Shown here piece by piece: positions 7,089 to 62,225 of a stretch of 64,000 bases of DNA. The notes beneath the pieces were generated by a model. It worked only from the letters and a program-made list of their open reading frames with translations. It searched no databases and was not told where the DNA came from. Where the stretch lies: contig CAVZJB010000016.1 of the NCBI GenBank assembly GCA_963775425.1, positions 608,001-672,000 of the forward strand, read 5' to 3'. Source of the DNA: an uncultured delta proteobacterium (lineage in GTDB: Bacteria > Myxococcota > UBA727 > VGSZ01). The position numbers and the translations under genes were made by a program. Each line of letters begins with the position of its first letter. Position 1 is the stretch's first letter.

Positions 7089-8240
7089 TCAACGGACCCA
7101 GAGGTCCATGTGCACGACCTCCATGTCCTCGTTGTCCGAGCCCTCGGTGAACATCAACCGGATCTCGACGGGCACCGACGCGTCGTGGACGGCCCCGGTG
7201 TCGACGAGGAACGACGGCGCCGACTCGGGCGCGCCCACGCAGCTCGCGTCGCCGAGGTCCTGGCCGTCGAAGAGCGTGTCGGTCTCGTCGAAGAACCGCG
7301 TGCCGGTGTCCTGCGGGTCCACCGACTCCGCCGGCTCCTCGCACAGGTAGTTGCTGCCCACGAAGGCGGGCGGTGAGGCGGCGATGCTGCCCACGCATGG
7401 GCAGGAGCAGGCGTCGTTCGCGAAGACGTCGGTGCAGCCGTGCGCGAAGGTGTAGACGTGCTCGCGCGGGTCGCCGACGAGGATGCCCATGCCGTCGACG
7501 AACGACAAATCGATGCTGCCCTGATCGTCGCGGAACGCGTCGGCGCCGCCAAAGCCGAACGCGCGCACGACGCCGCGCATCTCGCGCCACGCATACGGCG
7601 GCGGGAAGAACGCCGACGCCTGCGACGCGCCGCCGGCGTCGGGCCGTCGGCAGCCCCGCGACGACGCGACCCAGCCGGAGGGACACGGCTGCCCCTCGTC
7701 GAAGCGAAGCAGCAAGCCCCAGCCGCCGCCGTCGGTCTGCATGTCGCACTCCACCGCGCCGCCGGCGAGCGTGTACACACCGCTCGTCGCCGCGGGATCG
7801 GCCTCGAGCACCTCGAGGCACGTAGCGGGCGGCGCGCCGGTGCCCGCGTCGTCAACGTTGCCCGCGTCGTCGACGGCGCCCGCGTCCTCGACGGTGCCCG
7901 CGTCGTCGACGTTGCCCGCGTCCTCGACCGTGCCCGCGTCGTCGACGTTGCCCGCGTCGTCGACGTTGCCCGCGTCGTCGACGGTGCCCGCGTCCTCGAC
8001 GGAGCCGGCGTCGTCGACGGTGCCGGCGTCGTCGTTGACGGGGGCGCCGGCGTCGGCGGCGAGCGTGGGCGCCGGCCGGACGCGGCAGATCCCGTCGGAG
8101 CAGGTCTCGCCCTGGGAGCAGTCGGTGAGCGCGGCGCACGCCCGCGCGAAGTCCGCGTCGACGGAGCACGCGCCGGCGGCGGCCGCGGCGCCGAGCGCGG
8201 CGACGCATGCGACTCGACGGAGCCACGCGGCGGGCATCAT
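7089..8240 (-). CDS. Lipoprotein: 4-Cys module, DDAG linker, fibrinogen-like C-terminal domain
   Basis: Lipobox AGAC; CAALTDCSQGETCSDGIC; TCLEVL..SGVYTL..VECDMQTDGGGW fibrinogen-related motif. Confidence 0.8.
   Translation of the reverse strand: MMPAAWLRRVACVAALGAAAAAGACSVDADFARACAALTDCSQGETCSDGICRVRPAPTLAADAGAPVNDDAGTVDDAGSVEDAGTVDDAGNVDDAGNVDDAGTVEDAGNVDDAGTVEDAGAVDDAGNVDDAGTGAPPATCLEVLEADPAATSGVYTLAGGAVECDMQTDGGGWGLLLRFDEGQPCPSGWVASSRGCRRPDAGGASQASAFFPPPYAWREMRGVVRAFGFGGADAFRDDQGSIDLSFVDGMGILVGDPREHVYTFAHGCTDVFANDACSCPCVGSIAASPPAFVGSNYLCEEPAESVDPQDTGTRFFDETDTLFDGQDLGDASCVGAPESAPSFLVDTGAVHDASVPVEIRLMFTEGSDNEDMEVVHMDLWVR
7843..8035 (-). repeat. 18-bp coding tandem repeat ((D/E)DAG(T/N/S)V, about 11 copies)
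   Basis: Direct reading. Confidence 0.9.
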
Positions 8241-8281: not shown

Positions 8282-9271
8282 TCAGGGGCAGGCGCAGCTC
8301 GTGCCGGGGGAACAGACGGCGCTCGCGCCGTCGCACGAGAGCGCACACGAGGCCGCGTCGGCGGCGCAGGTGAGCGCACACGGCGACGCGGTGCATGTGA
8401 GCGTGCAGGTGGAGCCGGTGGAGCAAGCCAGGGCGACGGTGGCGGTAGCGCCCTGGGGCTCGACCTTGCACTGCGCAGCGTTCTGGCAGGTGAAGTCGCT
8501 CTGGGCGCTGCCGCCGTCGCTGAGCGCAAAGCGGCACGTCGAGGCGTCGCACGTGCCGATGAACACCGGCGATCCGTGGAGCGTGTTGTCGCAGGAGGCG
8601 CCGGTGTCGCAGTCGACGCGCGAGTCGGTCGAGCCGAGGCTGAGGTCGGCGCGGCACGTCGCCGCGCTGCAGACGAGGGACGGCTGCGTGCCGCCGGTCT
8701 GCAGCGTCGTGCATACGCTCCCGGCGTCGCAGCGGAGGTCGCACCCGCCGTCGCAGACCATCATGCAGGTGCCGCAGCCGGCGTTGCAGGACTCATTGCC
8801 GGCGGTGCAGCACGGGGAGCACGTCGTCGCGCAGTCGTCCGGACAGGCCCCGCCGCACGCCGCCGTCCCGTCGTAGGCGCCGATGCAGACGCCGCCGGGC
8901 TCGAGCGTGTCGCGCTGCGTGCACGCGAACCCGTCGTCGCAGTCCCCTTCCCCTTCCCCTTCCCCTTCCCCTTCGCCTTCGCCTTCGCCTTCGCCTTCGC
9001 CTTCGCCTTCGCCTTCGCCTTCGCCTTGGCCGGAGCCGGCGTCGGCCCCGGCGTCGACGGGGGGGCCGGGACCGGCATCGACGGCGCGGGGCGAGCCGGC
9101 ATCGATGCGCGCGGGGAGCGAGCAGCGGCCGGCGGAGCAGACCTCACCCGCGGCGCAATCGCCGTCGCCGGCGCACACGCGGAGGAACCCGGGATCGCCC
9201 CCACAGGCGGCGACGCCAAGGAGCGCTCCGAGGAGGGCGCCGAGGACGATCAGGTCGACGCACGCGCGCAT
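8282..9271 (-). CDS. Lipoprotein: 4-Cys module, (GE)n linker, very Cys-rich C-terminal domain
   Basis: Lipobox VAAC; CAGDGDCAAGEVCSAGRC; (GE)13; repeated CxxxC motifs. Confidence 0.75.
   Translation of the reverse strand: MRACVDLIVLGALLGALLGVAACGGDPGFLRVCAGDGDCAAGEVCSAGRCSLPARIDAGSPRAVDAGPGPPVDAGADAGSGQGEGEGEGEGEGEGEGEGEGEGEGEGEGDCDDGFACTQRDTLEPGGVCIGAYDGTAACGGACPDDCATTCSPCCTAGNESCNAGCGTCMMVCDGGCDLRCDAGSVCTTLQTGGTQPSLVCSAATCRADLSLGSTDSRVDCDTGASCDNTLHGSPVFIGTCDASTCRFALSDGGSAQSDFTCQNAAQCKVEPQGATATVALACSTGSTCTLTCTASPCALTCAADAASCALSCDGASAVCSPGTSCACP
8944..9026 (-). repeat. 6-bp repeat GG(C/G)GAA encoding (GE)n
   Basis: Direct reading of cttcgc/cttccc units. Confidence 0.95.
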
Positions 9272-9312: not shown

Positions 9313-9969
9313 TCAGCCGCCGACGGGGACGACGGCGCCGGTGACGATGTGGTTGTCCGGTGACGCGAGCCAGACGATGGTGGCGGCGATGTCGGCGGGG
9401 CTCGCCCACAGCGACCGGTCGGCGCCGGGCATGGCGGCGCGGTTCGCGGGCGTGTCGATCGTGGTCGGGGCCACCGCGTTCACGAGGACCTCCGCCGAAC
9501 GAAGCTCCGCGGCCGCGGCGCGCGTCAAGGCGATCACCGCGGCCTTCGACGCCGCATAGAGCGCCAACTGCGCCGGCGCCGCCTCGGCCGCGTGCGAGGC
9601 AACGTTCACGATGCGCCCGGCGCGCCCGCGCATCTGGCGCGCAGCTTCGCGTGTGCAGAGGAACGCGCTCGTGAAGTTGATGTCGAGCATGCGCCGCGCG
9701 TCGTCGACGGTGGCGTCGACGAGCGCGCCCATGGCGAAGCCGCCGACCACGTGCACCGACGCCCACAGCGGCGGCAGCGCCGCGTAGAGCGCGCGCACGG
9801 CGGCGTCGTCGGTGACGTCGACGCGGGGGAGCTTCTGCACCCCCGCGGGCACGGCGTTTCGGGCGGGCGCGTGCACGACGGCGCCGGCGGCGCCGAAGGC
9901 CGCGACGACGGCGCTCCCGAGCGCGCCGTCGGCGCCGGTGACGAGGACGTGGCGGTTCGCGAGAGCCAT
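9313..9969 (-). CDS. Short-chain dehydrogenase/reductase (SDR)
   Basis: VLVTGADGALG, IVNVAS, YAASK, VNAVAP motifs. Confidence 0.92.
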   Translation of the reverse strand: MALANRHVLVTGADGALGSAVVAAFGAAGAVVHAPARNAVPAGVQKLPRVDVTDDAAVRALYAALPPLWASVHVVGGFAMGALVDATVDDARRMLDINFTSAFLCTREAARQMRGRAGRIVNVASHAAEAAPAQLALYAASKAAVIALTRAAAAELRSAEVLVNAVAPTTIDTPANRAAMPGADRSLWASPADIAATIVWLASPDNHIVTGAVVPVGG

Positions 9970-54078: not shown

Positions 54079-54816
54079 GTGAAGCGCCGTGCGCTCCTCG
54101 CCTTCGTCGCGGTCGCCTGCGGACCGGCGCACGCTGCCAGCCTGTTCGTGGCGCCGGTGCCGCCGCCGACCGAGGAGGACGCGCCGGCGGCGAAGGCGCT
54201 GACGAGCGCCGTGGAGACCGCGGTCCTCAAGAAGGTCGTGGAGGCGGACGTGGTGACGCCGAGCGCGCTCGACACCAAGCTCGAGATCGACCTGGTGACC
54301 GCCTGCCGCGGCGACGGAGACGACGCCGCGTGCGTCGTCGACTTCGCCCAGGGGATGGGCGTCGACTACGTGGTGCGGACGACGCTGGCGCGGCTCGGGC
54401 ACACGCGGATCCTCACCATCGCGGTCTACGACGGGCACCGCGCGGCGCTCCTCGGCCAGGCGCAGCGGAAGGCGGAGAGGGCCGAGGACCTCGTCGACGC
54501 CGTCCCCGACGCCGTCGTCGAGGCGGCCAAGGCGGCGGAGCTGCGCGTCGTCGTGGAGCGCGTGAAGGCGCCGCCGTATCTCGCGTATGGCGCGCTCGCC
54601 GGCGGCGCCGTCGTGCTCGCGGGCTCGCTGGCGGCGCACGCCGTCGCCCTCGGCGTCTTCGAGGCCGACTACGAAAAGGCCGCCTACACGCGCGACCAGG
54701 CGCGGGGCTGGGAGCTGGCGCGCCCGTTCGCGTACGGCCTGCCGGTGGCGGGCTACCTGGCCGGCGCCGGCCTCGTCGTCGTCGGCATCGTCGCGTTGTC
54801 CTCGGAGGGCCCGTGA
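54079..54816 (+). CDS. Exported alpha/beta (CsgG/TolB-N-like) protein with C-terminal hydrophobic helix pair
   Basis: Signal peptide AHA; DDAAC..DYVV..RLG..YDG; paralog of 59068-59823. Confidence 0.7.
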   Translation: MKRRALLAFVAVACGPAHAASLFVAPVPPPTEEDAPAAKALTSAVETAVLKKVVEADVVTPSALDTKLEIDLVTACRGDGDDAACVVDFAQGMGVDYVVRTTLARLGHTRILTIAVYDGHRAALLGQAQRKAERAEDLVDAVPDAVVEAAKAAELRVVVERVKAPPYLAYGALAGGAVVLAGSLAAHAVALGVFEADYEKAAYTRDQARGWELARPFAYGLPVAGYLAGAGLVVVGIVALSSEGP

Positions 54817-56138
54817 CGGCGCGCCGGCCTGCGACGACGACGAGCCCCGGCGCGCTACCCCTCGTCGCCGCGATCGTCAGCGCGCTCGCGGGGTGTCCGG
54901 CGCAGCGGCCGTGCCACCAGGACGCGCAGTGCGAGGACGGCCAGACCTGCTCCGTCCCCGGGCGCGGCGGCGTCGGCGTGTGCGTCGCGGCCGAGGGCGA
55001 AGGCGAAGGAGAGGGCGAGGGCGAAGGCGAAGGAGAGGGCGAGGGCGAAGGAGAGGGCGAGCCCGTCCAGGTCCTCGCGGTCGACGTCGGCAACGGCTTC
55101 GCCTGCGCCCTCGACGCCGACGCCGACGTCCAATGCTGGGGCACCGATCTCGACGGGCAGCTCGGGCGCGACCTCGACTTCGGCGCCGAAGACCCCGTCC
55201 CGCACAAGGTCCCGGGCCTGAGCGGCGTCACCAGGCTCGCCGTCGCCCAGGCCCACACGTGCGCCATCGGCAGCCTCGACGGCGGCCCCACCACGGTCGC
55301 CTGCTGGGGCGACGCCACCCAGGGCAACCTCGGCACCACCACCGCCCCGCCCTTCACCGTCGTCGAGCCCAACCTGCCGGTGGCCGCCCTCCGCGGCGCC
55401 GTCGACATCGACGACGACGCCGACAACAACGGCGGCGTCACCTGCGTCGCCGACGACGCAGGCCACGTCACCTGCTTCGGCCCCCGGATGCCCGGCTACG
55501 ACGCCCAAAACGCCATCCCCGTCGCCGTCCCCGCCCTCGACGGCGCCACCCAGGTCTTCGTCAGCCTCGAGGCGCTGTGCGCGCGCACCCCCGGCGGCGT
55601 CGTGTGCACCCAGCTCGGCACCGGCGCCGTCGGCCACTTCGGCTGCACCGACGGGGCCCCGTGCGCGCTCCTCACCGCCGCCGACCGCTTCTCCCTCGAC
55701 CACGACGTCGTCTGCGCCGAGACCGCCACCGACGTGCAGTGCGCCGGGGTCAACACCTACGGCGCCGCGGACCCCGGCGCGCGCAGCGACGACGACATCG
55801 GCTTCACCAGCGTCACCGCGGGCATCGACGTCGCCGTCGGCCTCCAGCACGCCTGCGCCCTCACCATCGACGGCCGCGCCGTCTGCTGGGGCCGCTCCCT
55901 CGAGCTGTCTACCGGCCGCGACGAGAGCGACCTCGCCCTCGAGGACTGCGGCGGCAGCGTCGCCGGCCTCGGCACGCGTTGCCAGGGCGTCCTCGACGTC
56001 CCCGGCGCCGCCGCCCCGCTGCGCTTCTCGAGCCTCGCGGTCCACCGCACGCACACCTGCGCGCGCGAGTCCGACGGCGCCGGCGTCGTCTGCTGGGGCG
56101 ACGGCGACGCCCCCGTCCGCACCACCTTCGTGCACTGA
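54813..56138 (+). CDS. Lipoprotein: 4-Cys module, (GE)n linker, RCC1/BLIP-II propeller
   Basis: Lipobox LAGC; GNGFACAL..VQCWG..GQLG, HTCA, HACAL..AVCWG repeats. Confidence 0.85.
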   Translation: MTARRPATTTSPGALPLVAAIVSALAGCPAQRPCHQDAQCEDGQTCSVPGRGGVGVCVAAEGEGEGEGEGEGEGEGEGEGEGEPVQVLAVDVGNGFACALDADADVQCWGTDLDGQLGRDLDFGAEDPVPHKVPGLSGVTRLAVAQAHTCAIGSLDGGPTTVACWGDATQGNLGTTTAPPFTVVEPNLPVAALRGAVDIDDDADNNGGVTCVADDAGHVTCFGPRMPGYDAQNAIPVAVPALDGATQVFVSLEALCARTPGGVVCTQLGTGAVGHFGCTDGAPCALLTAADRFSLDHDVVCAETATDVQCAGVNTYGAADPGARSDDDIGFTSVTAGIDVAVGLQHACALTIDGRAVCWGRSLELSTGRDESDLALEDCGGSVAGLGTRCQGVLDVPGAAAPLRFSSLAVHRTHTCARESDGAGVVCWGDGDAPVRTTFVH

Positions 56139-56139
56139 A

Positions 56140-56173
56140 CGAAACGAGGGCCCCTCGCGGGGCCCCCGGTTCG
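56140..56173. terminator. Hairpin between convergent genes
   Basis: GGGCCCC-TCGC-GGGGCCC core with imperfect extension. Confidence 0.45.
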
Positions 56174-56199
56174 AGCGCGCGGCGCGCGTGGCGCTGCGT

Positions 56200-56634
56200 T
56201 CAGCCCTCGGGCGACGTCGTCACGCGCGAGGCAACCTGCTGGCGGGCGGCGTCGCGGGCCTGCATCGAGAGGGCGTGCTCGAAGATGGCCTGGCCCTTCA
56301 TCTCGAGCGCCTTGAGCGCCGGCTCGCGGTCCGCCATGGCGTGGCGGTACTTGGAGGCGAACTCGACGTGCATCTCCATCTGGTTCTTCTCCTTGAAGAA
56401 CGAGATCTTGTCGTCGCCAACGTTGATGTACACGCTGCCGTCGTAGGCCCGGACGGTCTTGTGGCCGAGGTCCTGGGCGGCGGCCGTGAGCCAGGGCGTG
56501 ATCTCCGGGGCCTTGGCGGCGCTCACCGGCAACTTGACGCTGGCTTCCTTGTCGCTCGCGGTAGGGCGTGTCATCGCGAAAACGGTACCGGCGCAGGCGA
56601 AGACGATGAGGATGGGGAAGGCGTAGCGGCGCAT
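56200..56634 (-). CDS. Small exported hypothetical protein
   Basis: GGAGG RBS; signal peptide MRRYAFPILIVFACAGTVFA. Confidence 0.7.
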   Translation of the reverse strand: MRRYAFPILIVFACAGTVFAMTRPTASDKEASVKLPVSAAKAPEITPWLTAAAQDLGHKTVRAYDGSVYINVGDDKISFFKEKNQMEMHVEFASKYRHAMADREPALKALEMKGQAIFEHALSMQARDAARQQVASRVTTSPEG

Positions 56635-56661
56635 GGGACCTCCGAAACGTGACCGATGTAA

Positions 56662-56678
56662 AGCAGCGGCTGTGCCAA
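56662..56678 (-). promoter_or_regulatory. Sigma54 (-24/-12) promoter
   Basis: TTGGCACAGCCGCTGCT = GG-N10-GC, 28 nt upstream of the ATG at 56634. Confidence 0.7.
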
Positions 56679-56931
56679 AACTCAATGGGCTGTTTCGACG
56701 CGTCCTGGCGCAAGGTTGCTCCCCCCGGCCGGAGCCTTGTGCACCTCATTGCTCAACTTGCGCACTCACACCGTGCGCTACTTGATCAGGCCAATGACCG
56801 ATGTGGGCCCGCAGCCTCGATCTTGCGACCGGAGGGAGCGGCCCCGACGGAGGTTCCGCCCCCCTCCCGCGGGTGACGAAGCGCACGGCGTCGGCGGATC
56901 TGCCGATGGCGGCGCGGGAGGAGGAGAAACG

Positions 56932-57004
56932 CGTCCCCAGGGGGATTCGAACCCCCGTCACCGCCGTGAAAGGGCGATGTCCTAGGCCTCTAGACGATGG
57001 GGAC
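56932..57004 (-). tRNA. tRNA-Glu (anticodon UUC), CCA not encoded
   Basis: GTCCCCATCGTCTAGAGGCCTAGGACATCGCCCTTTCACGGCGGTGACGGGGGTTCGAATCCCCCTGGGGACG folds into a cloverleaf. Confidence 0.96.
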
Positions 57005-57047
57005 AGACGGCGTCCCCTACCGTGCGCGCTGGCGCATCGCAAGAGAG

Positions 57048-57340
57048 CTACGAGGGCCCCACCACCAGGGCCGCCACCACCGCCCGCAGCTCCTCGAGGT
57101 CGAAGCGCTTGTGCATCCGCGGGTTCTTCACGGTGCTGAGGAACGCGCTGGCGTCGACGATGCGGTTGCGCAGGTCGGGGGCACCCGGGCCCCGTGTCCG
57201 CCACCTCGATCAGCGCCCAGCCGTCGGCGCCGGTGCAGGTGGAGACGCGGATCTCAGCTCCATCGGCCGGCTCTCCTGCTCCCCGGCGCGACGACCGAAC
57301 ACCTTGAGGTCGCGAACGATGTCGCGCACGCCGCGCCCCC
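57048..57340 (-). pseudogene. Collapsed relic of a hybrid sensor histidine kinase
   Basis: Three fragments in three frames: VRDIVRDLKVFGR (HisKA end), EIRVST..LIEVADTGPG (G1 box), APDLRNRIV..FLSTVKNPRMHKRFDLEELRAVV* (receiver end). Confidence 0.75.
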
Positions 57341-57357
57341 CCGGACGCCGCCGGCGC

Positions 57358-58944
57358 TCAGAGGGTCACCCCGGGCGGCACAGGGACGATGAGGTCGACG
57401 CTGCGGTCGCCGGCGTCGCCCCGACCGTCGTTGGGTTGCCAGCCCGTCAGGAAGTCGACGACGCCGAGCGCCCGCCCGAGCGCCGCCGGCGGATCGTCGT
57501 CCGCGGCGAAGTCCACCGGCGACGTCGACAGCCGCAGGGTGCCGTTGTCGTCGTCCCAGATCTCGACGATGCGGAACTGGTGCGGGAAGTCCGCCAACGC
57601 GCTGGTCATGACCTCCCAGAAGGCGTGGCCGGGGTCGCCGCTCGCCGGGTCCACGGCCTGTTGGAGCATGATGCGGTTTCTGTGCGCGTGGCCGACCATG
57701 GAGAAGAGCACGTTGGGGTACGCCGCGAGGACCGCGCGCCAGTCGTCGCCGAGCAGCGCGTCGTCCTCGGCGACGCCGAAGGTGCCGCCGTCCGCGGTGA
57801 GCGACGACACCGCGTGGTGCGACGCGAGCACCACCACGCGCCCGCGCGCCTGGGCGTCGTCGAGCACGGGCAGGACGAAGCGTTCGACGTCGGCGCGCTG
57901 GAGCACGCCCTCGCCGCCGCCGCGCGCGTGGGTGGTGTCGAGCACCATGAACGTGATCGGCGCCCCCGGGACGTCGAACGAGTAGAACGCCTTCCCGCGC
58001 GCGCCCGCGTCGCTGGCGGCGAGCGCCTTGAGGCCGTGCCCGTCGCCGTCGCCGCCGACGAAGTCGAGGAGCGCGGGCCCGTCGAGCAGGCGGCGCTGCG
58101 GGTCCGCGATGATGCCGCCGCCGTCGACGACGACGCCGAGGCCGCCGCCGGAGTAGTCGCGGGTGCCGAACTGCGCCTCGCTGCCGACCGCGATGGCACG
58201 CTGGGTGTCGTCGATGGCGAACGTCCCTTGCACTGTGACGTCGTGGTTGCCGTTCACCCAGAACCACGGCACGTCGAGGCCGGCGGCGGCGAACGGGTCC
58301 TTGCCGTCGTCGGCGCCGGGGTCGATGTCGTCGTCGGCGCCGCTGTCGCACTCGACGCGGCCCGCGCCGTCGAGGATCTGCATCACCCAGCGGACCTCGT
58401 TCTCCTGCGCCGAGTCGCTGTTGTCGCCGCCGAGGAGGAGGAAGTCGACGGGGTCCTCGGCGTCGAGCGCGTTCACCGAGCGAACGGCGGCGTTGAGCAT
58501 GCGGCAGATGAGCGGGTCCTGCGGGCGGATGGCCGACGACACCGACGGCGAGTCGAAGTCGGCGGCGCGCGCCGGGCTCTCGTCGTCCATGAGCTGGATG
58601 TCCGCGAGGTGGACGAAGCGCACCAGGCGATGCGCGTTCGGCCCCGGCGGCGGCGCGTCGCTGCCGTCGACGGTGCGGACCACGACGTCGTCGCCGGGGC
58701 CCTCCGCGAGGGCGCCCTCGTCGTCGTCGAGGTAGGCGGGGAGGTTCTCGGGGAGCGCGGGGTTGGCGCCGCCGCCCGACGGCGCGTGCGCCGGCTGGAG
58801 GCTGCGCTCGCGCGCGGTGGGCGGCGCGGACGCGAGGGGCGGCAGCGGCACGAGCTGCGCAGGCGGCGCCGGCGTCTTCGCGCACGCGGCGAAGACGGCC
58901 GAGACGACGACGACGAACGCACGGGTGACGGGGGCGGACCGCAC
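57358..58944 (-). CDS. Calcineurin-like metallophosphoesterase lipoprotein
   Basis: DIQLMDDESPAR, GGDNSD, NGNHD, SHH, GHAH; lipobox FAAC; GTG start. Confidence 0.85.
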   Translation of the reverse strand: MRSAPVTRAFVVVVSAVFAACAKTPAPPAQLVPLPPLASAPPTARERSLQPAHAPSGGGANPALPENLPAYLDDDEGALAEGPGDDVVVRTVDGSDAPPPGPNAHRLVRFVHLADIQLMDDESPARAADFDSPSVSSAIRPQDPLICRMLNAAVRSVNALDAEDPVDFLLLGGDNSDSAQENEVRWVMQILDGAGRVECDSGADDDIDPGADDGKDPFAAAGLDVPWFWVNGNHDVTVQGTFAIDDTQRAIAVGSEAQFGTRDYSGGGLGVVVDGGGIIADPQRRLLDGPALLDFVGGDGDGHGLKALAASDAGARGKAFYSFDVPGAPITFMVLDTTHARGGGEGVLQRADVERFVLPVLDDAQARGRVVVLASHHAVSSLTADGGTFGVAEDDALLGDDWRAVLAAYPNVLFSMVGHAHRNRIMLQQAVDPASGDPGHAFWEVMTSALADFPHQFRIVEIWDDDNGTLRLSTSPVDFAADDDPPAALGRALGVVDFLTGWQPNDGRGDAGDRSVDLIVPVPPGVTL

Positions 58945-59067
58945 GCGCCGAGTCTGGCACCCCGCGCGACAAAAGGAAGTCCTGAGGAAGGCGGAGGACA
59001 TTGTCCGGGGGCGCACGACGTGAGCGCGCTCATCGACGACCCCGGCCCGTGCGATACCGTCTCGGCC

Positions 59068-59823
59068 GTGCTCGGCGTCGCCCTCGCCCTGGCCGCCTCC
59101 GCCGTCGTCCCCGCGGCGTCCCCCGCCGCGCCGCGCGTCCTCGTGCTCGACCTGCAGCGTGGCAACGGGGTGAACGCGGACGAGACAAAGACCGTCGGCG
59201 AGCTCGTGATCGCCGCGGTGTCGTCGCGCGCGTCCCTGACCGTCATCTCCCACGACGACATCCGCCAGCTCGCCGCGCTCGCCGCCGACAAGGTCGAGAC
59301 GGGCTGCGACGACAACGCCTGCCTGTCGGAGCTCGCCGGGGCGCTCGCCGCCGACTACGTCGTGAGCGGGCGCATCAGCCGGCTCGGCGACATCGTCGTC
59401 ATGCAGCTGTCGTTGTTCGATGGGAACAAGAACGCCGCCGCCGGCCGCGCCACCCGCAAGGTCGGCTCGGTGGGCGCGCTCGCCGACGAAGTCGACCCAG
59501 CGGTCGACGGTCTGCTCCGCGCCGCCGGCCTCGCGGACGACAGCCCGCCCGCGCACCGCGAGCGCGCGGCCACCTCGAGCGGGCCGCGCCCCATGGCGCT
59601 CGCCGGCGACGTCGTGCTCGGCGTCGCCGGCCTCGGCGCGCTGACGGCGGTGGGCGCGGGCGTGGTCGGCGAGCTCTCGCTGGGCCAGCCCGCGACCCTC
59701 ACGTCCGCGCAATACAAGGGCCGGCAGGGCCTGGCGCTCGCCGTCATGGGCGTCGCCGCGGCCGTCGCGGTCGCCGGCGGTGTCGGCGGCGGCGCGCTCG
59801 TCCTCGCGGGAGGCGGAGAATGA
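59068..59823 (+). CDS. Exported alpha/beta (CsgG/TolB-N-like) protein with C-terminal hydrophobic helix pair
   Basis: RVLVLDL, GCDDNACLSELAGALAADYVVSGRISRLG..FDG; paralog of 54079-54816. Confidence 0.75.
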   Translation: MLGVALALAASAVVPAASPAAPRVLVLDLQRGNGVNADETKTVGELVIAAVSSRASLTVISHDDIRQLAALAADKVETGCDDNACLSELAGALAADYVVSGRISRLGDIVVMQLSLFDGNKNAAAGRATRKVGSVGALADEVDPAVDGLLRAAGLADDSPPAHRERAATSSGPRPMALAGDVVLGVAGLGALTAVGAGVVGELSLGQPATLTSAQYKGRQGLALAVMGVAAAVAVAGGVGGGALVLAGGGE

Positions 59824-60527
59824 GAGCGGGTCTTTCGCTCTTGATCGTGGTCACCGGCCTGAGCGGGTGCCGCCTGTTTTCGACGACCATCCCGTGCGTC
59901 GACGACCGCGACTGCCCGAGCGACACCACCTGCCACCACGAGCGCTGCGCGACCGGCGAGGGCGAGGGCGAGGGCGAGGGCGGCGGCGAGGGAGAAGGGG
60001 ACCGGACCCCCTGCACCGCCGACGGCGACTGCGCGCTGTCGCAGGCGTGCGCGAGCGACGTCTGCCTCGATCGATGCAACAGCGACGCGGACTGCGGCGC
60101 CGACGAGCGCTGCGCGGTCTTCGGCTTCATCAACACGGACCTGCTGTGCGCCCCCGGCTGCCGCATCGACGACGCCGGCAACGACAACTGCGGCGCCGGC
60201 GACATCTGCAGCGCGGGCACGCGTCAGTGTGTCAGCGCGCAGCCGTCGCCCCGCGGCCAGGACGGCCTGTGCGCGCGGGACGTCGAGTGCCAGCAGCCGC
60301 TGCGATGCTTCATCCTCGACGGCGAGACGCGCGGCGCCTGCACGGAGACCTGCAGCGACGACCTGTGCTTCGGCGCCGACTTCGAGACCAACAACTGCTG
60401 CGCAACCTCGGGGTTGAACGCCTGCGCCCTCGATTTCTGCACCGAGCAATGCAACGACAACGATTGCCCCAACTGCTGCTTCCTCACGGGCTTCTCCCAG
60501 TGCCTCGGCGGCAACTGCGCCCCGTAG
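59820..60527 (+). CDS. Lipoprotein: 4-Cys module, (GE)n linker, Cys-rich repeats
   Basis: ATG overlapping the upstream TGA; lipobox LSGC; CVDDRDCPSDTTCHHERC. Confidence 0.8.
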   Translation: MRAGLSLLIVVTGLSGCRLFSTTIPCVDDRDCPSDTTCHHERCATGEGEGEGEGGGEGEGDRTPCTADGDCALSQACASDVCLDRCNSDADCGADERCAVFGFINTDLLCAPGCRIDDAGNDNCGAGDICSAGTRQCVSAQPSPRGQDGLCARDVECQQPLRCFILDGETRGACTETCSDDLCFGADFETNNCCATSGLNACALDFCTEQCNDNDCPNCCFLTGFSQCLGGNCAP

Positions 60528-60692: not shown

Positions 60693-62225
60693 TCAAGCGC
60701 GGCGGCGGCGGCGACGGCAGGCGATGAGGAACATCAAGCACGCCACCGGGACGCCCGCGGGCTTCGCGGCCGCGCAGCCGCCGGCCTCGCCTGCGTCGCT
60801 GCCGGCGTCACTGCCGGCGTCTCCCTGATCGGCGGGGACGTGATGCAGTCCACCGGCCCCGGGGGCGCCGTCGTCGGCCGCGCCCGTGTCGCCGCCGTTC
60901 GCCGGGTCGGTGGCGCCGTCGTCGGCCGCGGGGTCGCTCGCCGCGTCGCCGGCAGGGTCGGTCGACGGGGCGCTGGAGGCGTCGTTCGCGGGGTCGCCGG
61001 CGGGGTCGGTGGCGCTGTCGTTGGAGGGATCGTTTTCCGGGTCGGTCGCCGTGTCGTTCGAGCCCTCCGGCGAGGTCACGGCGCCTTCGCCTTCGCCCTC
61101 GCCCTCGCCGGCCGGCGCCGGGAGCGCGTCGAACGTGGCGTCGATGTGCAGCGCGCCCGAGACGGTGACGGAGGCGGTGTCGCCGTCGACGAGGGTGCCG
61201 TTCACGCGCATCTCGACGAGCTCGTTGCCGGGCGCGGGGACGGCGGCGAAGGTGACCTCAGTGCGGTCGGCGTAGGTGTTCCCCACGGACGGCACCGACG
61301 CGACGATGCTGCCCGCGCCGGTGACGGTCTGCGAGTACAGGAAGCGCGGCGGTGCGAAGGTGTGGAAGTGCTGGATGGCGCCGGCGGTGACCGAGGCGCT
61401 TCCGTCCATCTGGTACGAGAAGCGGAAGTCGTAGTCGGTGTCGGGCAGGAGGTCCTCGAGCTGCTCGTCGACGTTGTTCTCGAACTGGTCGGCGTCGAGG
61501 TGGGCCTGGTCGACGACGGCGAGGTGCTCGTTCGCCGGCGCCACCTCGAGGCGCACCGTGCCCGCGTTGAAGTGCGGGTCGACGTAGCCGTGCACGTGCG
61601 CGACGTAGGAGCCGAGGCCGGTGACCTCGAGGCCCGTGGGGTAGCTGACCGACGGCGGGTTCAAGAACACCGTCACCGGCACCGTGGGGTGAAGCGCGCT
61701 GCGCTGGAAGTCGAAGGCGGCGAAGTCCACGGAGCCGACGAGCTGCCCGGTGGACACCGCGCGGCCGCGCACGGGGATGTCGATCTGGAGCTGCTGCTGG
61801 TCGGGGATCTGCCACAGGCCGCTCGGCGCGTCGAAGATGAGCGTGCCGTCGGCGGCCACCTGCGTCGGCGCCGACGGGCAGGTGCGCTGCGTCATGTGGC
61901 CGGGCGCGCCCATGAAGCACTGGGTGGGCGTGGAGCCGGCGCCGGTGGTGGGCGCGAGCTCGAGGCCGGGCGGCAGCTTGAAGCCGGGGCGCACCGTGAG
62001 CGAGGTGCCGCAGGGCTGCGGGAACGCGAGGACGTTGATGTAGACGTAGAACACGTCGCCCTGCTTGGGCGACTGCGTGCCGGCGGCGTAGGCGGTGCCG
62101 ACGTTGGCGGCGACCACCATGGTCTCCGCGCTCGTGATGACCGAGAAGCAGCCTTCGCTGTCGACGTAGTTGCCTTCGACGAACTGGGTGGCGAGGCCGA
62201 GGGCGAGGAGGGGGGCGATGAACAT
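60693..62225 (-). CDS. Secreted surface protein with Ig/FN3-like domains and MYXO-CTERM-like tail
   Basis: N-terminal signal; LLPDTDYDFRF FN3-like; GEGEGEG and DPA linker; GGCAA..hydrophobic..RRRRRR C-terminus. Confidence 0.8.
   Translation of the reverse strand: MFIAPLLALGLATQFVEGNYVDSEGCFSVITSAETMVVAANVGTAYAAGTQSPKQGDVFYVYINVLAFPQPCGTSLTVRPGFKLPPGLELAPTTGAGSTPTQCFMGAPGHMTQRTCPSAPTQVAADGTLIFDAPSGLWQIPDQQQLQIDIPVRGRAVSTGQLVGSVDFAAFDFQRSALHPTVPVTVFLNPPSVSYPTGLEVTGLGSYVAHVHGYVDPHFNAGTVRLEVAPANEHLAVVDQAHLDADQFENNVDEQLEDLLPDTDYDFRFSYQMDGSASVTAGAIQHFHTFAPPRFLYSQTVTGAGSIVASVPSVGNTYADRTEVTFAAVPAPGNELVEMRVNGTLVDGDTASVTVSGALHIDATFDALPAPAGEGEGEGEGAVTSPEGSNDTATDPENDPSNDSATDPAGDPANDASSAPSTDPAGDAASDPAADDGATDPANGGDTGAADDGAPGAGGLHHVPADQGDAGSDAGSDAGEAGGCAAAKPAGVPVACLMFLIACRRRRRRA

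Follow-up and report, generated by a model that had tools for sequence, protein, structure and literature searches.

Is a gene for an exported protein that runs by four nucleotides into a gene for a lipoprotein part of a working unit, or only its neighbour? The question is raised by a stretch of DNA of 64,000 nucleotides (the window) from an uncultured member of the Myxococcota, which is part of an 8.26-Mb assembly in 18 contigs (genome G000). Two such pairs lie in the window, and the initial annotation had read them as a repeated cassette in which a dedicated partner handles the export or surface display of its lipoprotein. We find that the module is a real, conserved and uncharacterised two-gene unit of the cell envelope, of the protein-lipoprotein pair type, and that the pairs probably form an undescribed cell-envelope complex. 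Both partner genes and both downstream genes have the coordinates first given for them, and their 4-nucleotide (nt) overlaps, GTGA in one pair and ATGA in the other, were confirmed:

54034, + strand: alternative TTG start of the P0001 open reading frame (ORF)
54079-54816, + strand: partner 1 (P0001), 245 amino acids (aa); profile hidden Markov model (HMM) match E=2e-32, profile positions 3-242
about 54139-54543, + strand: TolB-N/LpoB-like domain of P0001, preceded by a signal-peptide-like leader
54304-54333, + strand: Cys pair of P0001, residues 76/85
54577-54660 and 54727-54801, + strand: two Gly/Ala-rich helices of P0001
54813-54816, + strand: GTGA overlap of the partner 1 stop and the GTG start of lipoprotein 1, context ccGTGAcgg
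54813-56138, + strand: lipoprotein 1 (P0002), 441 aa; lipobox ..LAGC, with an RCC1-type propeller as cargo
54894-54983, + strand: lipid Cys and 4-Cys module of P0002
54993-55061, + strand: (EG)n tether of P0002
59068-59823, + strand: partner 2 (P0003), 251 aa; profile HMM match E=1e-68
about 59134-59532, + strand: TolB-N/LpoB-like domain of P0003
59305-59322, + strand: Cys pair of P0003, residues 80/85
59593-59670 and 59728-59811, + strand: helical hairpin of P0003
59820-59823, + strand: ATGA overlap of the partner 2 stop and the ATG start of lipoprotein 2, context gaATGAgag
59820-60527, + strand: lipoprotein 2 (P0004), 235 aa; lipobox ..LSGC, with a Cys-rich cargo
59868-59948, + strand: lipid Cys and 4-Cys module of P0004
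59955-59999, + strand: (GE)n tether of P0004

As had been proposed, the two partners are paralogous, with P0001 and P0003 sharing 35% identity over 82 aa (E=3e-11); each begins with a hydrophobic leader, contains a Cys pair and ends in two Gly/Ala-rich helices. The start of P0003 is uncertain, given that a database record (P0005) begins 16 codons further upstream. Their lipoproteins show no whole-protein similarity by BLASTP (best E 0.64), and the likeness of P0002 and P0004 is restricted to about 30 residues. The cargoes do differ in the way first described: P0002 carries an RCC1-type propeller (Pfam PF13540, 49.7 bits, cut-off 22), and P0004 has 33 Cys in 235 aa, so that its head is called Cys-rich from composition only. 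About 3 kb separates the two pairs, which form distinct operons; two genes on the opposite strand lie in between.

Pairing across the genome and the phylum

The observation is far larger than the two pairs of the window. A partner profile built with jackhmmer from P0003 and run on the six-frame ORFs of the assembly finds 68 members in this genome, and these paralogs are strongly diverged (25-35% identity). For the count of neighbours, genes were called crudely from the GC content of third codon positions (GC3), the partners were compared with the 6244 other genes, and a lipoprotein was scored as next when a product with a signal peptide and a lipobox was encoded on the same strand at -30 to +330 nt after the gene. 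By this measure a lipoprotein gene directly follows 32 of the 68 partners and 635 of the 6244 other genes (odds ratio (OR) 7.9, P=2e-14), and the enrichment is also seen for lipoproteins with at least three Cys in the following 45 residues (21/68 against 117/6244; OR 23, P=2e-19), for those with at least three GE repeats (16/68 against 96/6244; OR 20, P=2e-14) and with a stricter lipobox pattern (28/68 against 479/6244). The pairing counts are lower bounds, as at least four true cases that they miss were found by eye (C12:431041, C7:1936, C6:20812 and C8:252310). The dedicated gene-for-gene pairing suggested at the outset is therefore upheld by this enrichment, and the pairing is also kept across genera and families.

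The 4-nt overlap with the next gene occurs in 29 of the 68 partners, and a lipoprotein lies downstream in 23 of these 29. When the partners are divided by architecture, a lipoprotein is next in 21 of 43 hairpin-type partners, in all four of those with a PEGA domain plus one helix, and in 7 of 21 of other architectures; the lipoproteins of the PEGA type are large and lack the 4-Cys module, or knot, and one has 2743 aa. Some partners pair with lipoproteins that have neither the module nor (GE)n. The initial annotation had the next gene always encoding a lipobox, a 4-Cys module and a (GE)n run, which is correct for both pairs of the window, but "always" is too strong for the genome, in which 36 of the 68 partners have no detected lipoprotein adjoining them.

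Beyond this genome, profile searches were needed, as a word-index homolog search with P0003 alone returned only 2 matches. Against 1.84 billion cluster representatives, the partner profile matches 30,625 at E<=1e-3, 13,157 at 1e-10 and 1,423 at 1e-30. At E<=1e-10 there are matches in 116 of the 151 genomes of a phylum sample. A separate set of 41 relatives has 20 genomes with a match, including 10 of 10 of the window's own family. One family of the same GTDB order (f6), with genomes of 0.3-3.4 Mb, has no partner matches in 21 genomes of the relatives set and 18 of the phylum sample. The Myxococcus-like genomes of 9-10 Mb have one or two matches, with L047 as the single-copy version of the cassette, and several uncultured lineages have tens. 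Named homologs come from Myxococcus xanthus, Pyxidicoccus, Stigmatella, Archangium and Hyalangium, nearly all as "hypothetical protein", and further ones from metagenome-assembled genomes labelled "Deltaproteobacteria bacterium"; the ESM Atlas matches the placement in Myxococcota. Pfam lacks a model dedicated to the partner family, and 3 of the 10 representatives looked up bear the JGI name "TolB-like protein".

Conservation of the pair can be followed from genus to family. In G006, a genome of the same family and another genus, 26 matches at E<=1e-10 include 18 with a lipoprotein next, 1 doubtful and 7 without; likely orthologs of the window pairs are L059, with an RCC1-type head, and L026, with 235 aa and a Cys-rich head. 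In G013, from another family of the same order, 30 matches correspond to 29 genes, of which 17 have a lipoprotein next, 1 is doubtful and 11 have none, and in 7 of the 17 paired lipoproteins (GD)n replaces (GE)n (L031, L032, L037, L038, L090, L096 and L099). Four further genomes (G062, G135, G127 and G140) have a lipoprotein-like gene downstream in 12 of 12 best-scoring loci, which is a biased sample, and in their cassettes the knot is often kept and the tethers are Ala/Asp/Pro-rich or Gly/Ser-rich. Across at least four GTDB families, then, the cassettes have retained their gene order and 4-nt overlap despite changes in tether chemistry and heads.

The two genes of a cassette also change together. 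Between the cassettes L005 and L022, partner identity is 77% and module identity 59%, and the distances of partner and knot are correlated both among all 30 aligned cassettes (Mantel r=0.19, P=0.012) and within G000 (r=0.42, P=0.0006). This correlation indicates that cassettes evolve as units, and it is no demonstration of contact between the products. In G013, two loci (L097 and L098) have two partner-family genes in tandem, overlapping, the second with a lipobox-like leader of its own, and these leaders suggest that some members of the partner family may themselves be lipoproteins.

The partner protein, its fold and its anchors

An AlphaFold2 model of P0003, made with 22 paralogs, has a predicted local distance difference test (pLDDT) score above 90 over most of residues 21-150, where strand, helix, strand, helix, Cys loop, helix, three strands and helix follow one another. 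The best Foldseek matches in the Protein Data Bank (PDB) are PelC (E=1e-6), the TolB N-domain (4e-6), LpoB (5e-6) and GNA1162, followed lower in rank by CsgG, FlgT and HpaA, and matches at E<=0.001 extend to at least 70 PDB chains. Judged by this model, the partner, with a compact domain of some 130 residues, belongs at fold level to the TolB_N/LpoB/PelC/FlgO-like alpha/beta superfamily, and the CsgG/TolB-N-like fold guessed in the initial annotation is thus supported. Proteins of this fold are known as protein-binding platforms.

Sequence models match the family only weakly. Among 22 members scanned at E<=0.1, PF11684 (DUF3280) matches 9 (best 1.5e-6), TolB_N 2, LpoB 1 (E=0.007) and FlgO 1, and PEGA is matched by 2 of the 22; P0001 and P0003 match none of DUF3280, TolB_N, LpoB and FlgO at this threshold, and the Pfam CsgG model (PF03783) matches 0 of the 22. 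A PDB sequence search with the partner profile yielded only chance-level matches to Gly-rich repeats, and ESM Atlas neighbours of the partner include clusters with CsgG/LpoB domains. A link to the SitA toxins through DUF2380 was rejected, DUF2380 being pfam09533 (SitA6) and not the PF11684 matched here.

A Pro/Ala/Thr-rich linker joins this domain to the two C-terminal helices, whose mean Kyte-Doolittle hydropathies are 2.0 and 2.1 and which consist to 88% of Ala, Gly, Val and Leu. The loop between them has 19-56 residues and a Lys plus Arg density of 0.071 per residue, against 0.026 in the flanks, and it is the richer of the two in 28 of 30 sequences. Given hydrophobic helices and a positive-inside charge pattern, we infer that the hairpin sits in the inner membrane with a cytoplasmic loop, which would leave the domain and the C-terminus in the periplasm. 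Of the "helical membrane anchor or pore" first suggested, hydropathy and charge pattern thus favour the anchor, and nothing supports the pore. Most partner leaders end in Ala-rich sites without Cys, and P0003 has no canonical lipobox. The last partner residue is Glu in 20 of 30 sequences, which goes with the GAG-TGA or GAA-TGA form of the overlap.

The family is not confined to one anchor. The best match in Myxococcus-like genomes has the partner domain followed by eight long strands that end in an aromatic residue, and Foldseek relates this strand part to Ail, the OmpA transmembrane domain (TM-score by target up to 0.72), NspA, OmpW and OmpX; these barrel-type proteins have no Pfam match. A gene for a TPR-like lipoprotein lies 14-17 nt after the barrel-type gene, and fusion and lipoprotein gene occur together in 22 of 31 genomes of the Myxococcus-like family at E<=1e-20 (barrel-type loci L043, L044 and L070-L089). 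An OmpA/Ail-like barrel of eight strands implies that the TolB-N-like domain also works from the outer membrane. On the evidence of these models, the family swaps anchors between a barrel, a hairpin and PEGA plus one helix.

The lipoproteins and their lipid-proximal region

By their lipobox pattern, the downstream genes encode predicted bacterial lipoproteins, substrates of signal peptidase II. In an alignment of 30 cassette lipoproteins from five genomes, the four Cys of the module are invariant, and the lipid Cys stands at the lipobox column in 29 and one residue off in the other. The knot matches the TIGR04201 model weakly (5 of 30 at E<=1, best 2.3e-4). Beyond it, the number of (GE) repeats ranges from 4 to 40 in this genome, and the tether is specific to lineage: G000 and G006 share (GE)n, G013 has (GD)n, and G062 has an Ala/Asp/Pro-rich form. 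At the tether of P0002, 2.5 perfect copies of a 24-nt unit (54992-55051, 100% identity) suggest that slippage may have been recent. Pfam scans recognised a head in 8 of 20 lipoproteins, counting that of P0004 by composition only, and the other 12 match nothing beyond the repeat. The recognised heads, which appear from their sequences to be binding-type domains, are the following:

P0002: RCC1
L002: Kelch
L020: Kelch and Ig-like domains
L010: FG-GAP
L007: DUF1565 beta-helix
L017: DUF2341
P0004: Cys-rich

Pfam TrAA12 matches in the lipoproteins were dismissed, as they span the (GE)n run only. Models of ClfA, ClfB and Sdr are matched by 4 of 30 tethers, of the (GD)n kind, through repeat composition only.

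The initial annotation had treated the 4-Cys module and the (GE)n run as marks of the system, and this part of it did not survive. Genome-wide, the pattern of a lipid Cys followed by four Cys is found in 172 lipoproteins, only 18 of which are partnered, and of 294 ORFs with at least four GE repeats, 21 lie directly behind a partner. With 154 of the 172 module lipoproteins and most (GE)n ORFs partnerless, the knot and the acidic tether belong to the lipoproteins of this genome at large. What sets the partnered ones apart lies closer to the lipid: a hydrophobic pair at positions +3/+4 occurs in 12 of 18 partnered and 26 of 154 unpartnered module lipoproteins (P=2e-5), Arg or His at +2 in 6 and 11 (P=0.003), and a Cys-Pro step in the knot in 11 and 39 (P=0.004). 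This signature fits a recognition handle. The earlier proposal that recognition runs through the conserved module therefore keeps some ground in the N-terminal signature, but the pattern could also have arisen by common descent of the cassettes.

Position +2 bears on where the lipoprotein ends up. A Lys there is the mark of inner-membrane lipoproteins in M. xanthus, seen in 8 of 12 cases (PMC3222651). Among the 30 cassette lipoproteins it is found in only 1. If the M. xanthus rule carries over, the lipoprotein may leave the membrane of its partner.

Several other genes of the window have similar features. A lipoprotein at 8282-9271 (- strand) has the lipid Cys and 4-Cys knot (17.2 bits against TIGR04201, under the cut-off of 25), a (GE)13 tether encoded by a tandem repeat at 8946-9031, and a Cys-rich head; the gene next to it on the upstream side is an ORF at 9313-9969 (- strand), and no partner precedes it. 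The lipoprotein at 7089-8240 (- strand) has a Cys knot and a tether encoded by 10.9 copies of an 18-nt repeat (7838-8034), and its fibrinogen-like GGGW domain scores 38.1 bits against NF040941 (cut-off 30). A 510-aa secreted protein at 60693-62225 (- strand), with no NCBIfam or Pfam match at E<=0.01, combines a short (GE) run with a long low-complexity stretch of acidic composition, and it ends in a Cys-hydrophobic-Arg-rich tail that we take to resemble a sorting signal of the MYXO-CTERM type. Genes neighbouring the partners include a fatty-acid oxidation gene and a metallophosphoesterase of the TIGR03767 type, the latter between the two pairs on the opposite strand.

How the pairs might work

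Known systems offer several partial parallels. In E. coli, LpoB with PBP1B, like LpoA with PBP1A, combines an outer-membrane lipoprotein, carried by a long, disordered N-terminal tether, with an inner-membrane-anchored protein, and this logic is alike here, as is the globular fold of the partner. In contrast to LpoB, however, the LpoB-like domain is here on the anchored partner and not on the lipoprotein, the anchor is C-terminal, there is no penicillin-binding protein, and one operon is repeated at least 32 times in this genome with varied heads. The tolB-pal gene order also places a TolB-type gene directly before a lipoprotein gene, and the N-domain fold is shared, but the partner has no PD40 propeller, ends in two helices (a membrane hairpin) and has no tol genes nearby; it is the lipoprotein that bears a propeller in several cassettes (RCC1, Kelch or FG-GAP). 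PelC, which assembles next to PelB as a dodecameric ring, is the best structural match, yet in contrast to PelC, CsgG and GNA1162 most partners lack a lipobox, the partners have no beta-hairpin pore segment, and no pel or curli operon genes were seen next to the cassettes of the window. Given the absence of PF03783 matches among the 22 members, the helices that follow the domain and the general lack of a lipobox, the partner is not CsgG.

Slam (type 11 secretion) with its cargo and SusC with SusD are, like the cassettes, many-copy pairs in which a conserved partner gene lies beside a variable lipoprotein gene. Their partners, however, are outer-membrane beta-barrels, as opposed to a protein of about 250 aa that has an alpha/beta domain and two hydrophobic helices, and none of the 22 partners has a Pfam match to a Slam-type DUF560 barrel or TPR. 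Set beside the Cys-rich repeat of Myxococcus (TIGR04201), which it matches weakly, the knot is a single copy right after the lipid anchor, and any likeness of the (GD)n tethers to the SD-repeat stalks of staphylococci is one of repeat composition only. Literature searches of article text, which leave supplementary gene lists aside, found no description of the partner-lipoprotein pair. Thus, as the initial annotation had supposed, no characterised system of this layout was found, and the homologs are named hypothetical or TolB-like: the pair is uncharacterised, and the fold of the partner is known.

The reading that we tentatively prefer, plausible if not quite probable, is that each cassette encodes a stable stoichiometric pair of an inner-membrane periplasmic adaptor and its own lipoprotein. 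Each cassette would then be a two-gene operon for an envelope pair. The exported partner would consist of a periplasmic TolB-N/LpoB/PelC-fold domain, a short flexible linker, a Gly/Ala-rich hairpin in the inner membrane and a cytoplasmic loop. The second product, made from the overlapping start, would have a lipid anchor, a lipid-proximal peptide that is often Cys-x-hydrophobic-hydrophobic, a two-disulfide knot, an acidic dipeptide-repeat tether and a variable head, which may be RCC1, Kelch, FG-GAP, beta-helix or Cys-rich. The partner would bind its own lipoprotein, with the conserved N-terminal region as the likeliest handle, and the tether could act as a spacer that keeps the head at a distance from the membrane or allows the two proteins to reach across the periplasm. 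Gene structure, fold, pairing statistics and conservation are directly shown in this picture; membrane placement, binding, handle and purpose are inferred. We consider it rather unlikely, but conceivable, that the partners control the fate of lipoproteins paralog by paralog beside Lol, with tens of cognate pairs per genome: an inner-membrane receptor would read the lipid-proximal peptide and knot of its own lipoprotein and then either keep it, on its acidic repeat tether, as a trans-envelope strut or pass it on for surface display.

Several observations weigh against a stable pair of this kind. The 36 lone partners and the 154 lone module lipoproteins mean that the relation is obligate for neither family, and the hairpin part of the P0003 model is of low confidence (pLDDT 47-77). 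The lipid-proximal signature could also reflect one clade or duplication of whole cassettes, and the Mantel correlation could come from such duplication as well. The barrel relative means that members of the family need not all act at one membrane, and the rarity of Lys at +2 raises the possibility of a lipoprotein that departs from its partner. A complex prediction with partner residues 20-251 and lipoprotein residues 17-58 (30-row alignments) scored 0.00 against a mark of 0.32, with the fold of the partner chain itself uncertain, and so speaks neither for nor against binding.

Alternatively, the genes may be co-expressed and co-duplicated while their products act independently and make no contact. 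Operons of unrelated envelope genes are common, and both families also occur alone. Nevertheless, order and overlap have been kept across families despite the change of tether and head, the enrichment is strong, and partnered lipoproteins have an N-terminal signature of their own, so that we hold independent products to be distinctly unlikely. A partner that acts only in passing, as an inner-membrane assembly or sorting factor that grips the lipid-proximal peptide and knot of the new lipoprotein during disulfide formation before Lol release or retention, with no stable complex, would agree with the apparent inner-membrane anchor, with a signature right beside the lipid Cys and with translational coupling, which would bring both proteins to the same site; the rarity of Lys at +2 could also mean that retention or release needs an extra factor. 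However, no such gene lies near most of the lipoproteins that share this knot, one-to-one pairing with paralogs of such low identity is unusual for a chaperone, and the PEGA-type partners pair with knotless lipoproteins in every case, all of which make a transient factor unlikely in our view.

The export idea of the initial annotation, in which partner oligomers would form a ring with a helical pore and deliver each cognate lipoprotein to the cell surface, with the acidic repeat as a display stalk, has its own attractions. PelC and CsgG form rings, and these fold relatives and GNA1162 are associated with the outer membrane; Gly/Ala-rich helices suit tight packing, one relative carries an outer-membrane barrel, and the heads are adhesin-like, with some tethers matching models of staphylococcal SD-repeat adhesins. 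Yet the hairpin is strongly hydrophobic, enough for its helices to stop in the inner membrane, the positive-inside pattern agrees with such an anchor, and the Pfam CsgG model matches no member. Moreover, because most (GE)n and knot lipoproteins are partnerless, the partner cannot be a general exporter. Surface export through a pore, for which we see a poor chance, is therefore not supported. Finally, myxobacteria carry many loci for SitA lipoprotein toxins (PMC12077181), and the cassettes, being numerous and diverged, might likewise be polymorphic toxin-immunity pairs exchanged by outer-membrane fusion, with the lipoprotein as the toxin and a membrane protein for immunity. This is extremely improbable, as the heads are propellers, beta-helices and Ig-like domains with no toxin family matched in the Pfam scans, the partner is upstream and periplasmic, and orthologous pairs are conserved between genera and not polymorphic.

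In myxobacteria, predation, gliding and multicellular behaviour are all controlled by the cell surface. Should the pairs prove to be complexes, a single undescribed architecture would unite tens of envelope proteins in each genome of the soil and marine myxobacteria. The single-copy version of the L047 type in Myxococcus-like genomes makes the question testable in genetically tractable species, where the lipid-proximal signature and the (GE)n or (GD)n tethers would offer mutable handles on the positioning and export of lipoproteins outside the Proteobacteria.

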